Below, piece by piece: positions 2,368 to 22,585 of a stretch of 64,000 bases of DNA. The stretch lies in assembly GCF_058153355.1 (NCBI RefSeq), contig NZ_CM177019.1; one strand, written 5' to 3'. Position numbers and translations under genes: made by a program. Each line of letters starts with the position of its first letter. The first letter of the stretch is position 1. The notes beneath the pieces are model-generated. The model ran no database searches, had not been told where the DNA came from, and was given only the letters and a program-made list of their open reading frames with translations.

Positions 2368-3615
2368 ATGGTTATTTATCAAGGTGGTAAGATAATATCT
2401 GAAGATGATTTTTATTCTCATCTTTATTCGTTATGTCAGTTGGATAATGTAGGGGTTCTTTTAGGCGCGGGAGCATCGGTCGGATGTGGCGGCCAAACTA
2501 TGAAGCAGGTATGGCAGTTTTTTAAATATGAACATCCTGATCTATTGAATTTGTTACTAGAAAAATACTTATTGGTTGACAAAACTGAATCTGAACAAGA
2601 TATAGTTAATGTTGAGCTTCTAATTGATGAAGTAACTAAATTCTTGTCTGTGGCCAAAACAAGACGTAATGAAGACGAACAAAAAGAAATTAGTTTAATA
2701 TTAAGTGCTTTGTATAAACAAGTAACAAAGGCTGCATTGTTAACTGGAGAAGAGTTTGGTTGTAAAAATCAAGGGAAGAAAAAACAGTTTAAGTCTCATA
2801 AAGAATTAATTTCAAAGTTGATTTCAAATAGGCAGCCGGGACAATCGGCTCCGGCACTTTTTACTACCAACTATGATTTGGCATTAGAGTGGGCAGCTGA
2901 AGATTTAGGAATTCAGCTATTTAATGGTTTTTCAGGATTGCATACAAGACAATTTTATCCTCAAAATTTTGATTTGGCATTTAGAAATGTCAATGCAAAA
3001 GGGGAGGCTAGATTTGGTCATTATCACGCTTATCTATATAAATTGCATGGCTCTCTTACATGGTATCAGGATGATTTTTTAATAGTTAATGAGATAAGTG
3101 CATCTCAGGCATATGATAATTACATTAAAAATATTATTAATGGTGACGGTTTTTACTATGGTCAACATTTAATTTATCCGGGGGCTAATAAATATAGCCA
3201 TACAATTGGTTTTGTTTACGGTGAAATGTTTAGACGTTTTGGCGAGTTTTTGTCAAAACCTCAAACCGCTTTGTTTATTAATGGGTTTGGGTTTGGTGAT
3301 TATCATATAAACAGAATTGTTTTTGGTGCTTTGTTAAATCCGTCATTTCATGTTGTTATTTATTACCCTGATCTGGAGAATGCTTTAGATAAAGTTAGTA
3401 GAGGCGTTGCTTCTGAAGGTGAAAAGGCAATTGATGCTTTAAAAAATATGCAATTCAATCAAGTGACTATCGTGGGTGGGGGGGCAGATGCTTACTTTGA
3501 TAGTTTTGTGAAACATCTTCCTTATCCGGTGTTGTTCCCAAGAGAAAATACTGTTGATGACTTGGTTGAAGCTATTTCTAAATTGTCTAAAGGGGAAGGG
3601 AATGTCGCATTTTAA
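2368..3615 (+). CDS. SIR2-family (sirtuin-like, putative NAD+-consuming) protein, candidate defense effector
   Basis: 415 aa, AT-rich gene. Gly-rich dinucleotide-binding-like motif GAGASVGCGG (nt 2464-2493), TTNYD motif (nt 2863-2877), LHGS with candidate catalytic His (nt 3046-3048), matching SIR2_2-type signatures from memory. SD-like aagggataatt upstream. Confidence 0.7.
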   Translation: MVIYQGGKIISEDDFYSHLYSLCQLDNVGVLLGAGASVGCGGQTMKQVWQFFKYEHPDLLNLLLEKYLLVDKTESEQDIVNVELLIDEVTKFLSVAKTRRNEDEQKEISLILSALYKQVTKAALLTGEEFGCKNQGKKKQFKSHKELISKLISNRQPGQSAPALFTTNYDLALEWAAEDLGIQLFNGFSGLHTRQFYPQNFDLAFRNVNAKGEARFGHYHAYLYKLHGSLTWYQDDFLIVNEISASQAYDNYIKNIINGDGFYYGQHLIYPGANKYSHTIGFVYGEMFRRFGEFLSKPQTALFINGFGFGDYHINRIVFGALLNPSFHVVIYYPDLENALDKVSRGVASEGEKAIDALKNMQFNQVTIVGGGADAYFDSFVKHLPYPVLFPRENTVDDLVEAISKLSKGEGNVAF

Positions 3616-5422
3616 ACTATCTGAATTATCTGCTATTGGGTATGTCGTTGGTCTGGAGGGCGAAAAAATAAGGATAAATCTTCATGAAGGATTGCAAGGT
3701 AGGCTCGCCTCTCATAGGGATGGTGTTAGTTCTGTTACTCAGCCTGGAGATTTGATCGGTTTTGATGCCGGAAATATTCTGGTTGTGGCTCGAGTTACAG
3801 ATATGGCATTTGTCGAGGCTGATAAAGCACATAAGGCAAAAATAGGTACATCAGATATAGCAGATATGCCGTTAAGGCAAATAATAGCCTATGCAATAGG
3901 TTTTATTAGACGAGATATAGATGGATGTGTGTTTGTTTCGGAAGACTGGAGGTTACCTGCTCTGGGAGCATCCGCTGTCCCGTTAACATCTGATTTTTTA
4001 AATATCGTATATAGTATTGATAAAAATGATCTGGATAAAGCAATTGAGTTAGGAATAGATTCGAGGACTAAATCAGTTAAAATTTTAGCTAGCATTGATA
4101 AATTACTAACCAGGCATATGGCTGTTTTGGGCAGTACTGGATATGGTAAATCTAATTTTAATGCTTTACTTACACGCCGCATTTCAGAACAGTACCCTAA
4201 TGCAAGAATAGTAATTTTTGATATTAATGGCGAGTATTCTCAGGCTTTTGAAGGTGTTGCTAATGTTAAACATACTATTTTAGGTGAGTTACCAAAAGGA
4301 GAGTTTCCAAAACCACCTCTACAGAAAGGAGATATATTTTCTGAGAATGAACATTACTACTATAGAAAAATACCTTATCAAGCATTGGGATTTGCTGGGT
4401 TGATAAAATTACTACGCCCTAGTGATAAGACACAATTACCTGCATTAAGAAATGCGCTTAATGCTATAAATAGTGTTCATTTTTCCGATGATTCATTCTT
4501 TCTTAAGGATGAAGTAGGGGGCGTATTTAATATTTTTGATGATTGTAGAGATGAAGGGCAAGAGCTTTTATCTGCGTGGTTGAGTTTCTTAAGAAGAGGG
4601 ATGCTGTGTAAGGCAAATAAATGGCCGCCGTTTAAAAGTATTGCTAACTTGGTTGCGGAGTTTGGTTGCGTGGCGGCGGATTCGCGAAAAGCTGGATCTA
4701 GTAAACGAGATGCTTTTAGCTATGGTAATGTTCTGCCATTGATTAAGATAATTCAACAGTTATCAGAGGATTCTAGATTCAAGTATGTTGTTGATTTAAA
4801 TGGAGGTGGTGAATTATTAAGTGATGGCAAACATTGGGAATTAGCTATGAGACAGGAAGTTGATTATTTCTTTGGTAAAGAAAAGGGAGAGGAGAATGAC
4901 TGGAATATTCATATTGTTAATTTTAAGCATCTTTCACAAGATCATGCTCCAATGCTGTTAAGTGCATTATTAGAAATGTTTGCTGAAGTTCTCTTTCTTA
5001 GGGGGCAAAACAAAGCTTTTCCAACCGTGTTACTTCTTGAAGAGGCGCACCACTATTTAAGAGATCCTTATTCTGAAGTTGATGCACAAATTAAAGCTTA
5101 TGAAAGACTTGCTAAAGAAGGGCGTAAATTTAAATGTTCACTTATTGTGAGCACACAACGACCATCAGAGCTTTCATCAACAGTATTAGCAATGTGTGCA
5201 AATTGGTTTTCGTTGCGCCTGACAAATGAGCGTGATTTGCAGACTTTACGGTATGCGATGGAAAGTGGAAATGAGTTAATGATTCGGCAGATTTCTGGGC
5301 TTCCAAGAGGAGATGCAATAGCGTTTGGTGCTGCTTTTAATATACCCGTAAGAATTTCAATTCACCCTGCTGTACCCGGTCCGAGATCGTCTGACGCAAG
5401 TTATTCTCAAGAATGGCGATAA
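3602..5422 (+). CDS. HerA/FtsK-like P-loop ATPase, partner of the SIR2 protein
   Basis: About 606 aa from the ATG at 3602 (SD aggggaaggg just upstream; the track ORF starts at 3554). Walker A GSTGYGKS (nt 4130-4153), Walker B-like VLLLEEAHHY (about nt 5029-5058), STQRPSEL motif typical of HerA/VirB4-class ATPases. Start overlaps the SIR2 stop by 14 nt. Confidence 0.7.
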   Translation: MSHFKLSELSAIGYVVGLEGEKIRINLHEGLQGRLASHRDGVSSVTQPGDLIGFDAGNILVVARVTDMAFVEADKAHKAKIGTSDIADMPLRQIIAYAIGFIRRDIDGCVFVSEDWRLPALGASAVPLTSDFLNIVYSIDKNDLDKAIELGIDSRTKSVKILASIDKLLTRHMAVLGSTGYGKSNFNALLTRRISEQYPNARIVIFDINGEYSQAFEGVANVKHTILGELPKGEFPKPPLQKGDIFSENEHYYYRKIPYQALGFAGLIKLLRPSDKTQLPALRNALNAINSVHFSDDSFFLKDEVGGVFNIFDDCRDEGQELLSAWLSFLRRGMLCKANKWPPFKSIANLVAEFGCVAADSRKAGSSKRDAFSYGNVLPLIKIIQQLSEDSRFKYVVDLNGGGELLSDGKHWELAMRQEVDYFFGKEKGEENDWNIHIVNFKHLSQDHAPMLLSALLEMFAEVLFLRGQNKAFPTVLLLEEAHHYLRDPYSEVDAQIKAYERLAKEGRKFKCSLIVSTQRPSELSSTVLAMCANWFSLRLTNERDLQTLRYAMESGNELMIRQISGLPRGDAIAFGAAFNIPVRISIHPAVPGPRSSDASYSQEWR

Positions 5423-17437: not shown

Positions 17438-19648
17438 ATGAGCACAAAATTCAGAACCGTTATCACCACTGCCGGTGCAGCAAAGCTGGCAGCGGCAACC
17501 GCGCCGGGAGGGCGGAAGGTCAACATTACCACGATGGCCGTCGGGGATGGCGGTGGTAAATTGCCTGTCCCGGATGCCGGACAGACCGGGCTTATCCACG
17601 AAGTCTGGCGACATGCGCTGAACAAAATCAGCCAGGACAAACGAAACAGTAATTATATTATCGCAGAGCTGGTTATTCCGCCGGAGGTGGGCGGTTTCTG
17701 GATGCGTGAGCTTGGCCTGTACGATGATGCGGGAACGTTAATTGCCGTGGCGAACATGGCCGAAAGTTATAAGCCTGCCCTTGCCGAAGGCTCAGGGCGT
17801 TCGCAGACCTGCCGTATGGTCATCATCGTCAGCAGTGTGGCCTCAGTGGAGCTGACCATTGACACCACAACGGTGATGGCAACGCAGGATTATGTTGATG
17901 ACAAAATTGCAGAGCACGAACAGTCACGACGTCACCCGGACGCCTCGCTGACCGCAAAAGGTTTTACTCAGTTAAGCAGCGCGACCAACAGCACGTCTGA
18001 AACACTGGCCGCAACGCCGAAAGCGGTAAAGGCCGCCTATGACCTTGCTAACGGGAAATATACCGCACAGGACGCCACCACAGCGCGAAAAGGGCTTGTC
18101 CAGCTCAGTAGCGCCACCAATAGCGATTCTGAAACGCTCGCCGCAACACCAAAAGCGGTAAAAGCAGCGTATGACCTTGCTAACGGGAAATATACCGCAC
18201 AGGACGCCACCACAGCGCGAAAAGGCCTTGTCCAGCTCAGTAGCGCCACCAACAGTGATTCTGAAACGCTTGCAGCAACGCCAAAGGCGGTAAAGGCAGC
18301 ATATGACCTTGCTAACGGGAAATACACTGCACAGGACGCCACCACAGCGCGAAAAGGTCTTGTCCAGCTCAGTAGCGTCACCAACAGTGATTCTGAAACC
18401 CTCGCGGCAACGCCAAAAGCAGTGAAGTCTGCCTATGACAATGCTGAAAAACGTCTTCAGAAAGATCAGAACGGTGCGGATATTCCGGGAAAGGATACCT
18501 TCACGAAAAATATCGGTGCCTGTCGTGCTTATAGCGGCGCTTTGAGCACTGAAGCCGGAAACTGGACAACCGCGCAGTTTATTGACTGGCTAGAGTCTCA
18601 GGGAGCCTTTAATCATCCCTACTGGATGTGCAAGTGTTCCTGGTCATACGGTAATAACAAAATTATTACCGATACTGACTGTGGGACGATTCATCTTGCA
18701 GGTTGCGTGATTGAGGTTATGGGTGTTAAAGCAGCAATGACCATTCGTGTGACCACTCCGAGTACATCAAGCAGTGGTGGTACCACCAGTGCGCAATTCA
18801 CGTATATCAATCACGGAGCTGATTATGCGCCGGGCTGGCGACGCGACTACAATACGAAAAATAAGCAACCGGCTTTTGCATTAGGGAAAACAGGAAATAC
18901 GGTTGCAAATAATAAAGCAGTAGGATGGAACTGGGACAGTGGTGCTTATTGTGCACAGGATGGCGGAGCATCAAAAATGGTGCTGCATTTTTACACGGGT
19001 GAGGGAAGTTGTCCGGCAATGCAGTTTCTTGTGGATTATAAAAACAGGGGGATTTTTTACAGGTCGGCACGTGATGGGTATGGATTTGAGGCTGACTGGT
19101 CAGAGTTTTATACCACATCACGAAAGCCAACACCTGCGGATATTCTTGCTCTGGCATTATCAGGCGGAAGCATGTCAGGCAGCATAAAATTTATCAATGA
19201 TGCCTTCCTGATTTGGGAAAGAAACACTGACTGGGCGAAAATTGGATTTAAAAATGATTCAGATGCTGATTCTGACTCATTCATGTGGTTTGAAACTGGT
19301 GATAATGGCAATGAATATTTTAAATGGCGCATCAGGTCTGGCAGCACAACAAAAGATCTGATGACGCTTAAGTCTGATGCACTACGGGTTACCGGGCAGG
19401 TGATACCATCAAATTTCAGCAATTTTGACTCCCGCTATGTCAGGGATCTCCGGCTTGGTGGTGCCGCCACATACAAACCTGCGAACAATGGCATGACATG
19501 GACACATCAGGCACCGTCCGGGTGTGTATATACCGGCATTATTGTTCAGGATACCGGCTCAAACTCTGCCGATAACATTGGTGGCGTATATTACAGACCG
19601 GTGCAGAAATACATTAACGGGACATGGTACAACGTGGCGCAGGTATAA
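17438..19648 (+). CDS. H: Tail fiber protein gpH, with internal tandem repeats and a lower-GC distal domain
   Basis: 736 aa; conserved N-terminus, about four copies of a ~44-aa repeat, then an AT-richer C-terminal receptor-binding region. Confidence 0.85.
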   Translation: MSTKFRTVITTAGAAKLAAATAPGGRKVNITTMAVGDGGGKLPVPDAGQTGLIHEVWRHALNKISQDKRNSNYIIAELVIPPEVGGFWMRELGLYDDAGTLIAVANMAESYKPALAEGSGRSQTCRMVIIVSSVASVELTIDTTTVMATQDYVDDKIAEHEQSRRHPDASLTAKGFTQLSSATNSTSETLAATPKAVKAAYDLANGKYTAQDATTARKGLVQLSSATNSDSETLAATPKAVKAAYDLANGKYTAQDATTARKGLVQLSSATNSDSETLAATPKAVKAAYDLANGKYTAQDATTARKGLVQLSSVTNSDSETLAATPKAVKSAYDNAEKRLQKDQNGADIPGKDTFTKNIGACRAYSGALSTEAGNWTTAQFIDWLESQGAFNHPYWMCKCSWSYGNNKIITDTDCGTIHLAGCVIEVMGVKAAMTIRVTTPSTSSSGGTTSAQFTYINHGADYAPGWRRDYNTKNKQPAFALGKTGNTVANNKAVGWNWDSGAYCAQDGGASKMVLHFYTGEGSCPAMQFLVDYKNRGIFYRSARDGYGFEADWSEFYTTSRKPTPADILALALSGGSMSGSIKFINDAFLIWERNTDWAKIGFKNDSDADSDSFMWFETGDNGNEYFKWRIRSGSTTKDLMTLKSDALRVTGQVIPSNFSNFDSRYVRDLRLGGAATYKPANNGMTWTHQAPSGCVYTGIIVQDTGSNSADNIGGVYYRPVQKYINGTWYNVAQV
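17950..18440 (+). repeat. In-frame tandem repeats (~132 bp x ~3.8) inside tail fiber gene H
   Basis: Repeated peptide GLVQLSSATNSxSETLAATPKAVKAAYDLANGKYTAQDATTARK; copies differ at synonymous sites, so the array is not a very recent duplication. Confidence 0.8.
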
Positions 19649-19651
19649 TTT

Positions 19652-20179
19652 ATGCAGCATTTGATAAATATAACGGCAGGTAATCCAAAAACGGTTGAAC
19701 AATATCAATTGACAAAGGACTTTGATGTTGTCTGGTTTTTTTCAGAAGATGGTAAGAACTGGTACGAAGAACAAAAGTATTTTGCTGATGACACGATAAA
19801 AATAGCGTACGACAAAGATAATATCATCCGCTATGTGGAAAAGGATGTGACAGCTATCAGACCGGATGGATTAAGTGTGGTTGAAGTGGCTGATATTACT
19901 GCTAATCGACGGGCGGACATTTCAGGGGGCTGGATGTTTAAGGACGGCAAAGTGATTAAACGCATTTATACGGCAGAGGAATTGCAGAAGCAGACAGAAA
20001 ATCGGAAAGCCAGACTTCTTGCAGATGCTGAATCCGTGATTTTGCCGCTGGAGCGCGCTGTCAGGCTGAATATGGCAACAGATGAGGAGCGTAGCCGACT
20101 GGAAGCATGGGAACGCTACAGTGTTCTGGTCAGCCGTGTGGATCCTGCAAATCCTGAATGGCCGGAAATGCCGCAATAA
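19652..20179 (+). CDS. G: Tail fiber assembly chaperone gpG
   Basis: 175 aa, AT-rich like the H distal domain; P2 position. Confidence 0.75.
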
Positions 20180-20459
20180 GTGATATGATCTCTTGTGTTA
20201 GTTAACATAGCTATAGTACAGAGTAAGGCCTAATCTGACAGTCCGCTCTGTGCTAGGAGCGGACATTATCAACATCATGCTATGTTAATGTATAAAGTGA
20301 AGATAAATTGATATAATAAGGCCACCATGAATATTTCAGAACCTTGTCAAAAGGTTTGCACATACTCTAGTCTTGCAATGTGTAGTTGATAGTTCCACTG
20401 AGGAGGTTCTTCGACATTCTTTATAAAAATGTACATTTTCATCAATAATAAGAGGTAAA

Positions 20460-20501
20460 ATGGCTTTAATAGTTTTTTGTGGATGTTATTTCTACTCATA
20501 A
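20460..20501 (+). CDS. 13-codon mini-ORF (MALIVFCGCYFYS) with strong SD, candidate leader peptide or small hydrophobic protein
   Basis: taagaggtaaa-ATG context; ends 67 nt upstream of the HEPN-like ORF. Very short, so speculative. Confidence 0.25.
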   Translation: MALIVFCGCYFYS

Positions 20502-20568
20502 ATTTTGAGATAAGTATTGAGTTGAGATAAAGTTAAACTCGTTAAATTCACTTTTAAAAGGATAAAGC

Positions 20569-21096
20569 ATGGACTGGAAAGATCTTGCATCAACCGCTGT
20601 GTATACAGGTATGACTGATGAAAATGAAAGCATATGGGAACGTGTTGATGGGGTTGACGTTGCCTTCATAGGTGCCTTTCTTACTGCGCACTTGAGCCTT
20701 GAAAAGTATATTACTGATTATCTTGGATTAAGATATCCTTCGTTAGCTTGGGGTGATGCAAAACTCACATTTTCACAAAAAATAGCTTTAATACAACATG
20801 AGCCTGCAAAATCCCCTTATGATGAAATATATTTAAGAATAAAAGACTTTAACAGCATAAGAAATAAAATCAGTCATCAATTGAATTATCAGATTACGGA
20901 TAAAGAAAAAAGTAAGTTTGTGGACTTCTACATGAAGATTACTAAAGCCAGTAAAACTAAACCAAATATTGATATTGATAACATGGCAGATTTGTTGGAT
21001 TTTTTCGTATCGATGACAAAATCCTATTTTGCTAGTGCTATTTCTTATTATCACTATAATAAAAAGGTTGCAGGTAAAAGTAATAAAATTGATTAA
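20569..21096 (+). CDS. Hypothetical protein with HEPN-like Rx4H motif; candidate single-gene anti-phage or abortive-infection cargo at the Z/fun hotspot
   Basis: 175 aa, strongly AT-rich, between G and FI. R98-N-K-I-S-H103 (nt 20860-20877) fits the Rx4-6H motif of HEPN RNase domains. SD aaaaggataaagc-ATG. Confidence 0.5.
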   Translation: MDWKDLASTAVYTGMTDENESIWERVDGVDVAFIGAFLTAHLSLEKYITDYLGLRYPSLAWGDAKLTFSQKIALIQHEPAKSPYDEIYLRIKDFNSIRNKISHQLNYQITDKEKSKFVDFYMKITKASKTKPNIDIDNMADLLDFFVSMTKSYFASAISYYHYNKKVAGKSNKID

Positions 21097-21271
21097 TAAA
21101 ACTGGACTTAGGGATAATTAATATATAGACGTTCTATCATTTTTAGAGTGTGCGGCAGCTCCATACATTCATGCGGATGTCAGCACCTCGCTCAAAGCAG
21201 ACAGTCAGATTTGATAGCGTTTGGACTATGTAAATAGTCAGTTGGAAAATGAGTGAGTACAAATCAGGACA

Positions 21272-21296
21272 GGCGGGCGAATTGCCCGCCTTTTCT
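21272..21296 (+). terminator. Rho-independent terminator at the end of the Z/fun cargo region
   Basis: ggcgggc-gaatt-gcccgcc hairpin followed by ttttctttat. Confidence 0.5.
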
Positions 21297-21394
21297 TTAT
21301 CTGTTGTTTCATCCACTGACCAGCCAGGTCAAATAGCGCCTCATACTCTGCACAACAGAAAATAATTGCACCCATTAACCACGGAGTTAAACGG

Positions 21395-22585
21395 ATGAGT
21401 GACTATCATCACGGCGTGCAGGTGCTGGAGATTAACGAGGGCACCCGCGTCATTTCCACTGTATCCACGGCCATTGTCGGCATGGTCTGCACGGCCAGCG
21501 ATGCGGATGCGGAAACCTTCCCCCTCAATAAACCTGTGCTGATTACCAATGTGCAGACCGCAATTGCAAAGGCCGGTAAAAAAGGCACGCTGGCGGCATC
21601 GTTGCAGGCCATCGCCGACCAGTCAAAACCGGTCACCGTTGTCGTGCGTGTGGAAGACGGCACCGGCGACGACGAGGAAACGAAACTCGCGCAGACCGTT
21701 TCCAATATCATCGGCACCACTGACGAAAACGGTCAGTACACCGGACTGAAAGCCCTGCTGGCCGCAGAGTCGGTAACCGGTGTTAAACCGCGTATTCTCG
21801 GTGTGCCGGGACTGGACACCAAAGAGGTGGCTGTTGCACTGGCATCAGTCTGTCAGAAGCTGCGCGCTTTCGGGTATATCAGCGCATGGGGCTGTAAAAC
21901 CATTTCCGAGGTGAAAGCCTACCGCCAGAATTTCAGCCAGCGTGAGCTGATGGTCATCTGGCCGGATTTCCTCGCATGGGATACGGTCGCCAGTACCACC
22001 GCCACCGCGTATGCCACCGCCCGTGCACTGGGCCTGCGCGCTAAAATCGACCAGGAGCAGGGCTGGCATAAAACGCTGTCCAACGTCGGGGTGAACGGTG
22101 TTACCGGCATCAGCGCGTCCGTATTCTGGGATTTGCAGGAGTCCGGCACCGATGCTGACCTGCTTAACGAGTCAGGCATCACAACGCTGATTCGCCGTGA
22201 CGGTTTCCGCTTCTGGGGTAACCGTACATGCTCTGATGACCCGCTGTTCCTCTTTGAAAACTACACCCGCACCGCGCAGGTGCTGGCCGACACGATGGCT
22301 GAGGCGCACATGTGGGCGGTGGACAAGCCCATCACCGCAACGCTGATTCGCGACATCGTTGACGGCATCAATGCCAAATTCCGTGAGCTGAAAACAAACG
22401 GCTATATCGTGGATGCGACCTGCTGGTTCAGCGAAGAATCCAACGATGCGGAAACCCTCAAGGCCGGAAAACTGTATATCGACTACGACTATACCCCGGT
22501 GCCTCCTCTTGAAAACCTGACCCTGCGCCAGCGTATTACCGATAAATACCTGGCAAATCTGGTCACCTCGGTTAACAGCAATTAA
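21395..22585 (+). CDS. FI: Tail sheath protein gpFI
   Basis: 396 aa; P2 size and position. Confidence 0.9.
   Translation: MSDYHHGVQVLEINEGTRVISTVSTAIVGMVCTASDADAETFPLNKPVLITNVQTAIAKAGKKGTLAASLQAIADQSKPVTVVVRVEDGTGDDEETKLAQTVSNIIGTTDENGQYTGLKALLAAESVTGVKPRILGVPGLDTKEVAVALASVCQKLRAFGYISAWGCKTISEVKAYRQNFSQRELMVIWPDFLAWDTVASTTATAYATARALGLRAKIDQEQGWHKTLSNVGVNGVTGISASVFWDLQESGTDADLLNESGITTLIRRDGFRFWGNRTCSDDPLFLFENYTRTAQVLADTMAEAHMWAVDKPITATLIRDIVDGINAKFRELKTNGYIVDATCWFSEESNDAETLKAGKLYIDYDYTPVPPLENLTLRQRITDKYLANLVTSVNSN

Follow-up and report, generated by a model that had tools for sequence, protein, structure and literature searches.

The P2-like prophage on contig NZ_CM177019.1 (assembly GCF_058153355.1) carries, between its tail genes G and FI, a single AT-rich open reading frame (ORF) that we propose, with a probability of about 0.6, to be prophage cargo encoding a predicted stand-alone HEPN endoribonuclease that acts as a single-protein abortive-infection defence. 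The window analysed is a stretch of 64,000 nucleotides of this contig; the G-FI interval occupies positions 20180-21394, and the ORF (20569-21096, plus strand) begins with ATG and encodes 175 amino acids. That the protein has an HEPN fold with a catalytic-type motif is well supported by structural modelling; its remote homology to HepS (STM14_3211), a 212-residue solo HEPN abortive-infection anticodon nuclease from the Salmonella prophage Gifsy-1 (PDB 9oij/9oik; PMC13043305), is significant in sequence comparison; and the neighbours of the gene and its homologs, in five independent contexts, point strongly to a role in defence or as a toxin. A preliminary description of this DNA, made from the letters alone, had put forward both the HEPN assignment and a defence or toxin role; fold model, structure and profile searches, and motif conservation agree with the first, and the neighbouring genes speak for the second.

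Conservation and predicted HEPN fold

Judging from its homologs, the cargo ORF is a real gene under purifying selection. We assembled a close alignment of 21 full-length homologs at 58-99% identity from several Enterobacterales genera (among them Escherichia, Citrobacter, Enterobacter, Serratia, Yersinia, and Pectobacterium) and a deep alignment of 143 relatives at 20-30% identity. The preliminary description had allowed that the frame might not be intact in related elements; in all 21 close homologs the frame is intact and the length consistent, residues R98, N99, K100, I101, S102, and H103 are invariant, and the ratio of nonsynonymous to synonymous substitutions (dN/dS) relative to the Pectobacterium copy is 0.14 at a dS of 0.70. 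The G+C content of the gene is 0.31-0.34 in every host; locally it is 0.29-0.36 over positions 20150-21200, against 0.55-0.60 in the tail genes. The coordinates, length, and AT-rich composition first reported for the ORF are thus correct, and the codons confirm the motif RNKISH (R98-H103, 20860-20877, plus strand).

An exhaustive profile search extends the family to at least 353 clusters of relatives (at 50% identity), nearly all of them 150-210 residues long. The sole invariant column in the 143-sequence alignment is R98, and G35, L38, H41, L42, E45, L66, F68, K71, N95, N99, and H103 are each conserved in at least 90% of the sequences; three of these residues (H41, L42, and E45) lie in the helix-1 cluster H41-L42-S43-L44-E45 (20689-20703, plus strand). 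RNxxxH is kept in 127 of 129 distant full-length representatives. The motif is meaningful because it is conserved among homologs, the bare R-x4-H alone being weak evidence: shuffles of the HEPN protein contain R-x4-H in 8.7% of cases and R[NDH]x3H in 1.4%. Within the close family there is hardly any variation in helix 1 and the motif helix, and the most variable segments are a hairpin loop (residues 13-22), a second loop (128-138), and the C-terminal tail. Another protein matched by the family profile, P0043 (4271 residues, from the representative library), is matched in 11 separate stretches, each of which covers the region of the motif (profile positions 92-126). This may be a giant protein in which HEPN-motif-like segments recur, but low complexity may equally have produced the matches as an artefact.

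An AlphaFold2 model computed with the 21-sequence alignment reached a mean predicted local distance difference test score (pLDDT) of 60.7 and was not used in fold searches; the model used instead, computed with the 143-sequence alignment, has a pLDDT of 93.3 and a predicted template modelling score of 0.85. It consists of a beta-hairpin (9-12/23-26) followed by helices at 31-55, 61-75, 87-103, 111-127, and 139-174; helix 87-103 carries the motif at its C terminus, and the chain ends at residue 175, after the last helix. This all-alpha up-down helical bundle is common to the model and to solved HEPN domains (HEPN-fold proteins that may be named here are AF0298, HI0074, TTHA0636, and the MNT-associated HEPN toxins, as well as sacsin HEPN, AbiF, AbiA, Cas13b, Csm6, and Las1). 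Foldseek found HepS as the sole credible match in the PDB, at a probability of 0.97-0.98. The nearest models in the AlphaFold database are uncharacterised proteins of Pseudomonas, Acinetobacter, Sideroxydans, Dyella, and others (TM-score 0.75-0.85), and further neighbours include DUF4145, AbiU2-like, Cthe_2314-like, and RiboL-PSP HEPN proteins. The outcome that the preliminary description had named as refuting it, a coincidental motif and no HEPN fold, did not occur in either the structure or the profile searches.

Catalytic HEPN domains have an R-x4-6-H motif with a polar residue (N, D, or H) after the arginine, together with a conserved acidic residue in the N-terminal helix (PMC3710099). 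The present family has the motif, and with E45 it also has this second, acidic feature of HEPN domains; E-x3-[KR] is not complete, residue 49 being T. Searched against the PDB, the family profile again finds HepS best (E 8.8e-8), with the HEPN domains of Csm6 next. We retrieved full-length HepS from IMG/VR by a degenerate DNA pattern and built a HepS family alignment from it; hhalign of the two families gives a probability of 98.1% and an E-value of 7.9e-14 over 88 columns, which span helix 1 through the helix that follows the motif. The aligned pairs (present family first) are E45 with E48, which is invariant in HepS, W61 with F66, N95 with N97, R98 with R100, N99 with N101, K100 with K102, H103 with H105, L105 with I107, and Y107 with Y109. 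R100 and H105 are essential in HepS (PMC13043305), and the alignment to R100-H105, like that to the Csm6 HEPN motif, marks RNKISH as the predicted endoribonuclease active-site motif.

No Pfam family stands for this protein. We considered DUF4145, HEPN_RiboL-PSP, HEPN_Cthe2314, HEPN_AbiV, HEPN_AbiU2, and Cas_Csm6_HEPN: the query has no HEPN-family match at E<=10, and at most two of the 143 relatives reach E<=0.001 for any single HEPN family. Individual members give weak sub-threshold matches, mostly to families of the HEPN clan; because no consistent Pfam significance emerges among them, we regard the family as separate and unmodelled. NCBIfam likewise yields 0 families at E<=10, and among PHROGs the protein falls in phrog_5483, to which no function is assigned. 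Literature searches by accession, PHROG, and DUF identifiers returned no mention of the protein, of phrog_5483, or of the weakly matching DUF6548. The protein was at first called undescribed, and this stands as far as Pfam, NCBIfam, PADLOC, and the literature on the protein itself are concerned, but not for its kind, since a characterisation of HepS, to which it is remotely homologous, appeared in January 2026 (PMC13043305).

Genomic contexts of the gene and its homologs

The full cassette is present in 48 of 5426 complete E. coli genomes; partial matches to the 20180-21394 query occur in 968 of these genomes and are probably due for the most part to the backbone flanks. From 48 versus 968 genomes, roughly 5% of P2-like prophages would carry the cassette here. 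The exact protein occurs on 208 contigs, and every record calls it a hypothetical protein. The only phage-database record with the gene is vB_EcoM-569R9 (ON470601.1), in which a run of N lies exactly over the catalytic motif (about 3300-3340 of our extracted locus L002); the run drops the reported identity to 91% and stretches the annotated coding sequence to 183 residues. In strain 13E0767 (NZ_CP020107.1; locus L001, 1-3469), the upstream tail fibre gene is split by the IS21-family element ISEc12, so that the prophage is probably defective, and the HEPN gene is intact.

P2-type hotspots are places where defence genes are expected (PMC9122126; bioRxiv 10.64898/2026.02.27.708500). The preliminary description had seen the ORF as single-gene cargo of the Z/fun slot, and rightly so: it stands alone between G and FI, where P2 carries the unrelated fun(Z) and further P2-like phages hold other genes. 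Homologs at 60-83% identity occur in four settings besides this one: i) the second P2 hotspot, between gpA and portal, where the homolog adjoins PDC-S15; ii) a P2-like tail cluster, where it adjoins AbiGi; iii) the cargo locus of a P4-like satellite, where it adjoins AbiV and PDC-S31; and iv) a Pectobacterium island, where it lies near PDC-S31 and a retron-type reverse transcriptase. The present prophage has filled its own gpA-portal hotspot (2368-5422, plus strand) with a complete anti-phage pair, SIR2 (2368-3615) and HerA (3554-5422), matched in PADLOC at E 3e-188 and 7e-272 and in NCBIfam by SIR2_antiphage and HerA_antiphage. The gene thus moves from one defence hotspot to another, in P2-like phages, in P4-like satellites, and in chromosomal islands, always adjoined by known or candidate defence genes.

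No conserved partner gene was found: the neighbours differ in all five contexts, and the genes upstream of the homolog in two of the loci compared (L016 and L017) are unrelated to each other, the one in L016 being a paralog of the HEPN gene itself. Because no neighbour is common to the contexts, the gene travels alone. The paralog belongs to Pectobacterium sp. PL64 (L016, 5284-5784 and 6001-6510), where the gene is preceded by a 166-residue protein (…GHLVVEHLL…MRNKFAH…) with 33% identity to it; this tandem pair could form hetero-oligomers. A separate observation concerns the AbiGi setting (L032, 3277-3978, minus strand; also L014, 7491-8177), where a 233-residue gene beside AbiGi, presumably the AbiGi partner, carries R-N-Y-A-I-H. 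It has no PADLOC or Pfam match and, by its sequence, may be another unrecognised HEPN protein.

These contexts bear directly on the rival explanation that survives best, which we nevertheless think unlikely: that the protein is the HEPN toxin of an addiction or toxin-antitoxin module whose antitoxin, be it a small protein, an antisense product, or an RNA, went unrecognised, the main role of the toxin being to stabilise the prophage or island rather than to stop phages. No gene is conserved beside the HEPN gene over the five contexts, nor does an MNT gene adjoin it. The AT-rich, cargo-specific leader (20267-20568, plus strand) is no better a place for an antitoxin: we found in it no tandem repeats, no RNA folding beyond that of shuffles (z = +0.64), no Rfam family (the single match, to isrF at E 0.31, is a chance one), and no credible small ORF, and its DNA is not conserved upstream of homologs in the other contexts. 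Antisense ORFs are absent or different in copies 60% identical to this one. Finally, the homolog HepS is non-toxic alone and requires no antitoxin (PMC13043305).

Architecture of the G-FI slot

The slot is bounded on the left by gpG (tail fibre assembly; 19652-20179, plus strand), which closes the V-W-J-I-H-G late operon, and on the right by gpFI (tail sheath; 21395-22585, plus strand), both identified from the annotation of near-identical E. coli prophages and of phage vB_EcoM-569R9. Alignment to P2-like records shows that backbone homology stops at about 20266-20275. Two arms of a Z-region inverted repeat bracket the cargo. The left arm (20232-20266; 35 nucleotides, 80% complementary to 21177-21211) corresponds in alignment to the feature called "left inverted repeat" in the P2-EC58 and P2-EC45 records and to the P2 sequence after G; at the right arm (21177-21211), which is conserved in P2, P2-EC58, and phage 569R9, the P2 backbone resumes. 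The older Z-region records, P2-EC58 and P2-EC45, likewise have left and right inverted repeats annotated around their cargo. With the repeats so placed, the cargo proper comprises about 20267-21176, and the repeats themselves may mark the mechanism by which cargo is exchanged at the G-FI slot. Within the cargo, a Shine-Dalgarno-like AAGGA (20558-20562) lies six bases 5′ of the ATG.

The left arm holds a perfect 8-bp inverted repeat, GTCCGCTC/GAGCGGAC at 20241-20248/20257-20264. Downstream of the ORF, the terminator scan found an intrinsic terminator-like hairpin with a T run (21271-21301, plus strand), formed by a 9-bp G+C-rich stem at 21271-21291; it is followed by the pF late promoter region (21302-21394, plus strand), recognised by alignment to the annotated P2 activator-binding site and F-operon transcription start; within this region the homolog of the activator-binding site (about 21302-21327) comes first and the FI leader after it. 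The preliminary description had noted both the 8-bp repeat and the terminator, and both are real sequence features; it had also taken them as signs of an autonomous cassette expressed in the lysogen, and this argument is not supported. Both are conserved P2 backbone that occurs with different cargo, the hairpin in P2, P2-EC58, and P2-EC45 and the terminator in P2 (where it accompanies fun(Z)) and P2-EC58, and neither therefore speaks for autonomy of the cassette; the leader is no richer in promoter-like sites than shuffles are; and the terminator scan found no terminator between gene G and the HEPN ORF, the one at 21271-21301 being the first downstream of both.

Because the interval from G to the ORF lacks a terminator, late read-through from the V operon is possible, and with it a second rival, improbable in our estimation: that the protein is a phage-benefit RNase of the P2 lytic cycle, expressed by read-through from V-W-J-I-H-G and serving to shut off host or competitor RNA or to control P4-type satellites, rather than a product of lysogenic conversion. 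The ORF lies on the same strand as G, and the annotated V-operon terminator of P2 lies inside the fun(Z) cargo, absent here. The leader also contains, about 210 bp 5′ of the ATG, the element TGTCAAAAGGTTTGCACA (20345-20362, plus strand), a TGT-N12-ACA built like the P2 Ogr/Delta late-activator site; the window contains 9 matches of this kind where 14.6 are expected, and without enrichment the element may be due to chance. A lytic function is hard to reconcile with the occurrence of the gene outside phages, in a chromosomal island and P4-like satellites, as well as in the gpA-portal hotspot of another P2-like phage, always among defence genes, and the known occupants of the G-FI slot are lysogenic-conversion genes. 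Late read-through and a defence role are compatible.

Elsewhere in the tail cluster, a 132-bp (44-residue) unit is repeated 3.5 times in tandem, at 89% identity, within the tail fibre gene H (17978-18439, plus strand; Tandem Repeats Finder score 714), and the copy number may vary among prophages.

Proposed mechanism and comparison with known systems

HepS is a latent tetramer that is opened through direct binding of the siphovirus tail-tip protein J; its N- and C-terminal strands (S13, D15, S202, T203) build a composite beta-sheet with the trigger, F66, K78, and L83 lie at the tetramer interface, and K71 and N101 contact tRNA (PMC13043305). Once activated, it cuts tRNA anticodon loops (tRNA-Thr), and abortive infection follows (PMC13043305). 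By analogy with HepS, the predicted single-protein defence would work as follows: the protein would be made in the lysogen as a latent homo-oligomer with its paired R/H sites closed; a protein of an infecting phage would bind and open the active sites; and the nuclease would then cut tRNA anticodon loops or other RNA and halt translation, so that no phage would issue from the infected cell. The binding surface would probably lie in the variable parts (the hairpin loop, loop 128-138, and the C-terminal tail), and variable sensing surfaces on a fixed catalytic core would, we speculate, fit the pattern of sequence variability. The protein may respond to another trigger than HepS does and may cut another RNA, and the resident P2-like prophage would itself need to avoid triggering the nuclease.

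Several points weigh against an abortive-infection nuclease of the HepS kind. The protein matches no model of PADLOC-DB 2.0 (0 families at E<=10). The leader holds 6 promoter-like sites, against 4.9 +/- 2.2 in shuffles, which is chance level. The contigs of the distant homologs are too short for defence-island statistics, and the evidence from context is that of close homologs. Identity to HepS is 20-26% over only part of the protein (by BLASTP, 26% over 73 residues), below the 35-50% of the published HepS clade (PMC13043305). HepS residues K71, K78, and L83 are not conserved, being L66, A73, and E78 in the hhalign alignment, whereas F66 and N101 are kept, as W61 and N99; the protein may therefore assemble differently from HepS, answer to another trigger, and cut another target. 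Lastly, the C-terminal trigger strand of HepS (S202/T203) has no counterpart, since our protein stops at residue 175 and the alignments end at about HepS residue 157; an N-terminal beta-hairpin is present and might correspond to the HepS N-terminal strand.

A larger claim, which we hold to be evenly balanced, is that a large, unmodelled family of solo HEPN nucleases, distinct from HepS, serves in defence, and that this protein represents the family in E. coli and P2. The family, spread across Proteobacteria in the at least 353 clusters noted above, would sense a different phage trigger through its variable N-terminal hairpin, loop 128-138, and C-terminal tail, would perhaps cut a different RNA, and would shuttle from either P2 hotspot to the other, to P4-like satellites, and to chromosomal islands.

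The high fold similarity to MtlR/YggD (PDB 3brj, 3c8g, 6kcr), HEPN-fold regulators of mannitol operons, raises a further rival, a non-catalytic, RNA-binding or regulatory HEPN protein. Many members of the MtlR/YggD family, which is an HEPN family, lack the catalytic motif (PMC3710099), whereas the present family keeps R-N-x3-H and the helix-1 glutamate throughout, which is the catalytic HEPN signature; MtlR belongs to mannitol operons, whereas the present gene is found in mobile defence loci and in no mannitol or other metabolic operon, its context here being phage tail genes; and the nearest solved proteins by sequence profile, HepS and Csm6, are active nucleases. We therefore judge a non-catalytic protein very improbable. 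A non-functional ORF, a chance frame or decaying cargo with a coincidental motif, might be suspected from the foreign AT-rich DNA, the uniform "hypothetical protein" records, and a bare motif that appears in about 9% of shuffles, but is effectively refuted by 175 open codons in stop-rich DNA of 33% G+C, by the intact frame and consistent length in many genera, by the dN/dS of 0.14, by the 353 clusters of relatives, and by the confident fold prediction.

The nuclease that we favour would still be no great surprise conceptually, because HEPN nucleases are expected cargo at such loci: the family is uncharacterised, but its kind is already known, and it sits at a site where defence genes are expected. 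What it would add is a second, widely distributed family in the class of solo-HEPN abortive-infection nucleases, so far represented by HepS alone, and an E. coli, myovirus-borne representative of that class. The family is also invisible to Pfam, NCBIfam, and PADLOC despite occupying textbook P2 and P4 defence hotspots; if the larger claim above is true, current defence-annotation tools overlook a common single-gene system, and confirmation of the nuclease would fill an annotation gap.

Several known systems can be set beside it. The assemblage of DUF4145, RiboL-PSP, Cthe_2314, and AbiU2-like proteins (a Pfam clan; Anantharaman et al. 2013) has the fold and RNxxxH in common with the present protein, and one close relative was labelled RiboL-PSP-HEPN by its submitter, but members of our family reach no consistent Pfam significance with it. 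MNT-HEPN (type VII) toxin-antitoxin systems were considered and rejected, there being no adjacent ORF in the slot and no MNT gene in the other contexts, and AbiF-like or type III systems with an RNA antitoxin were rejected in the absence of upstream repeats, structured RNA, an Rfam family, or conserved upstream DNA. Fun(Z) of P2, a lysogenic-conversion gene that blocks phage T5, occupies the same slot between the same bounding inverted repeats, but it is 528 residues long and lies on the opposite strand, and homology to it was rejected (BLASTP E 1.8). Tha of Staphylococcus aureus prophages (PMC11087260) is of the same functional kind: the prophage encodes an HEPN RNase, and a structural protein of a phage switches this defence on. 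The authors of the HepS study call Tha an entirely different system (PMC13043305), and an inhibitor gene, ith, overlaps it in antisense and controls it (PMC11087260). A search for a Tha-like antisense inhibitor gave none, antisense ORFs being absent or different in the 60% identical homologs.

HepS remains the closest comparison. Like HepS, the present gene stands alone in a prophage accessory locus without a conserved partner. The proteins differ in length (175 residues against 212, that is, 37 fewer) and at His41, which is conserved in the present family where HepS has N44, and their host elements differ as well: ours lies between tail genes of a P2-like myovirus, HepS in a lambdoid siphovirus prophage. 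Given the low identity, the lack of a C-terminal strand, the non-conservation of K71, K78, and L83, and the histidine in place of asparagine, we treat the present proteins, on their sequences, as a sister family of the same kind as HepS rather than as its orthologs. The protein is a solid, good candidate for experimental validation and possibly useful for comparison with HepS: if the two families are what we propose, that comparison would show by what changes one small HEPN scaffold comes to serve different phage triggers and RNA targets, and how self-triggering by the host prophage is avoided.

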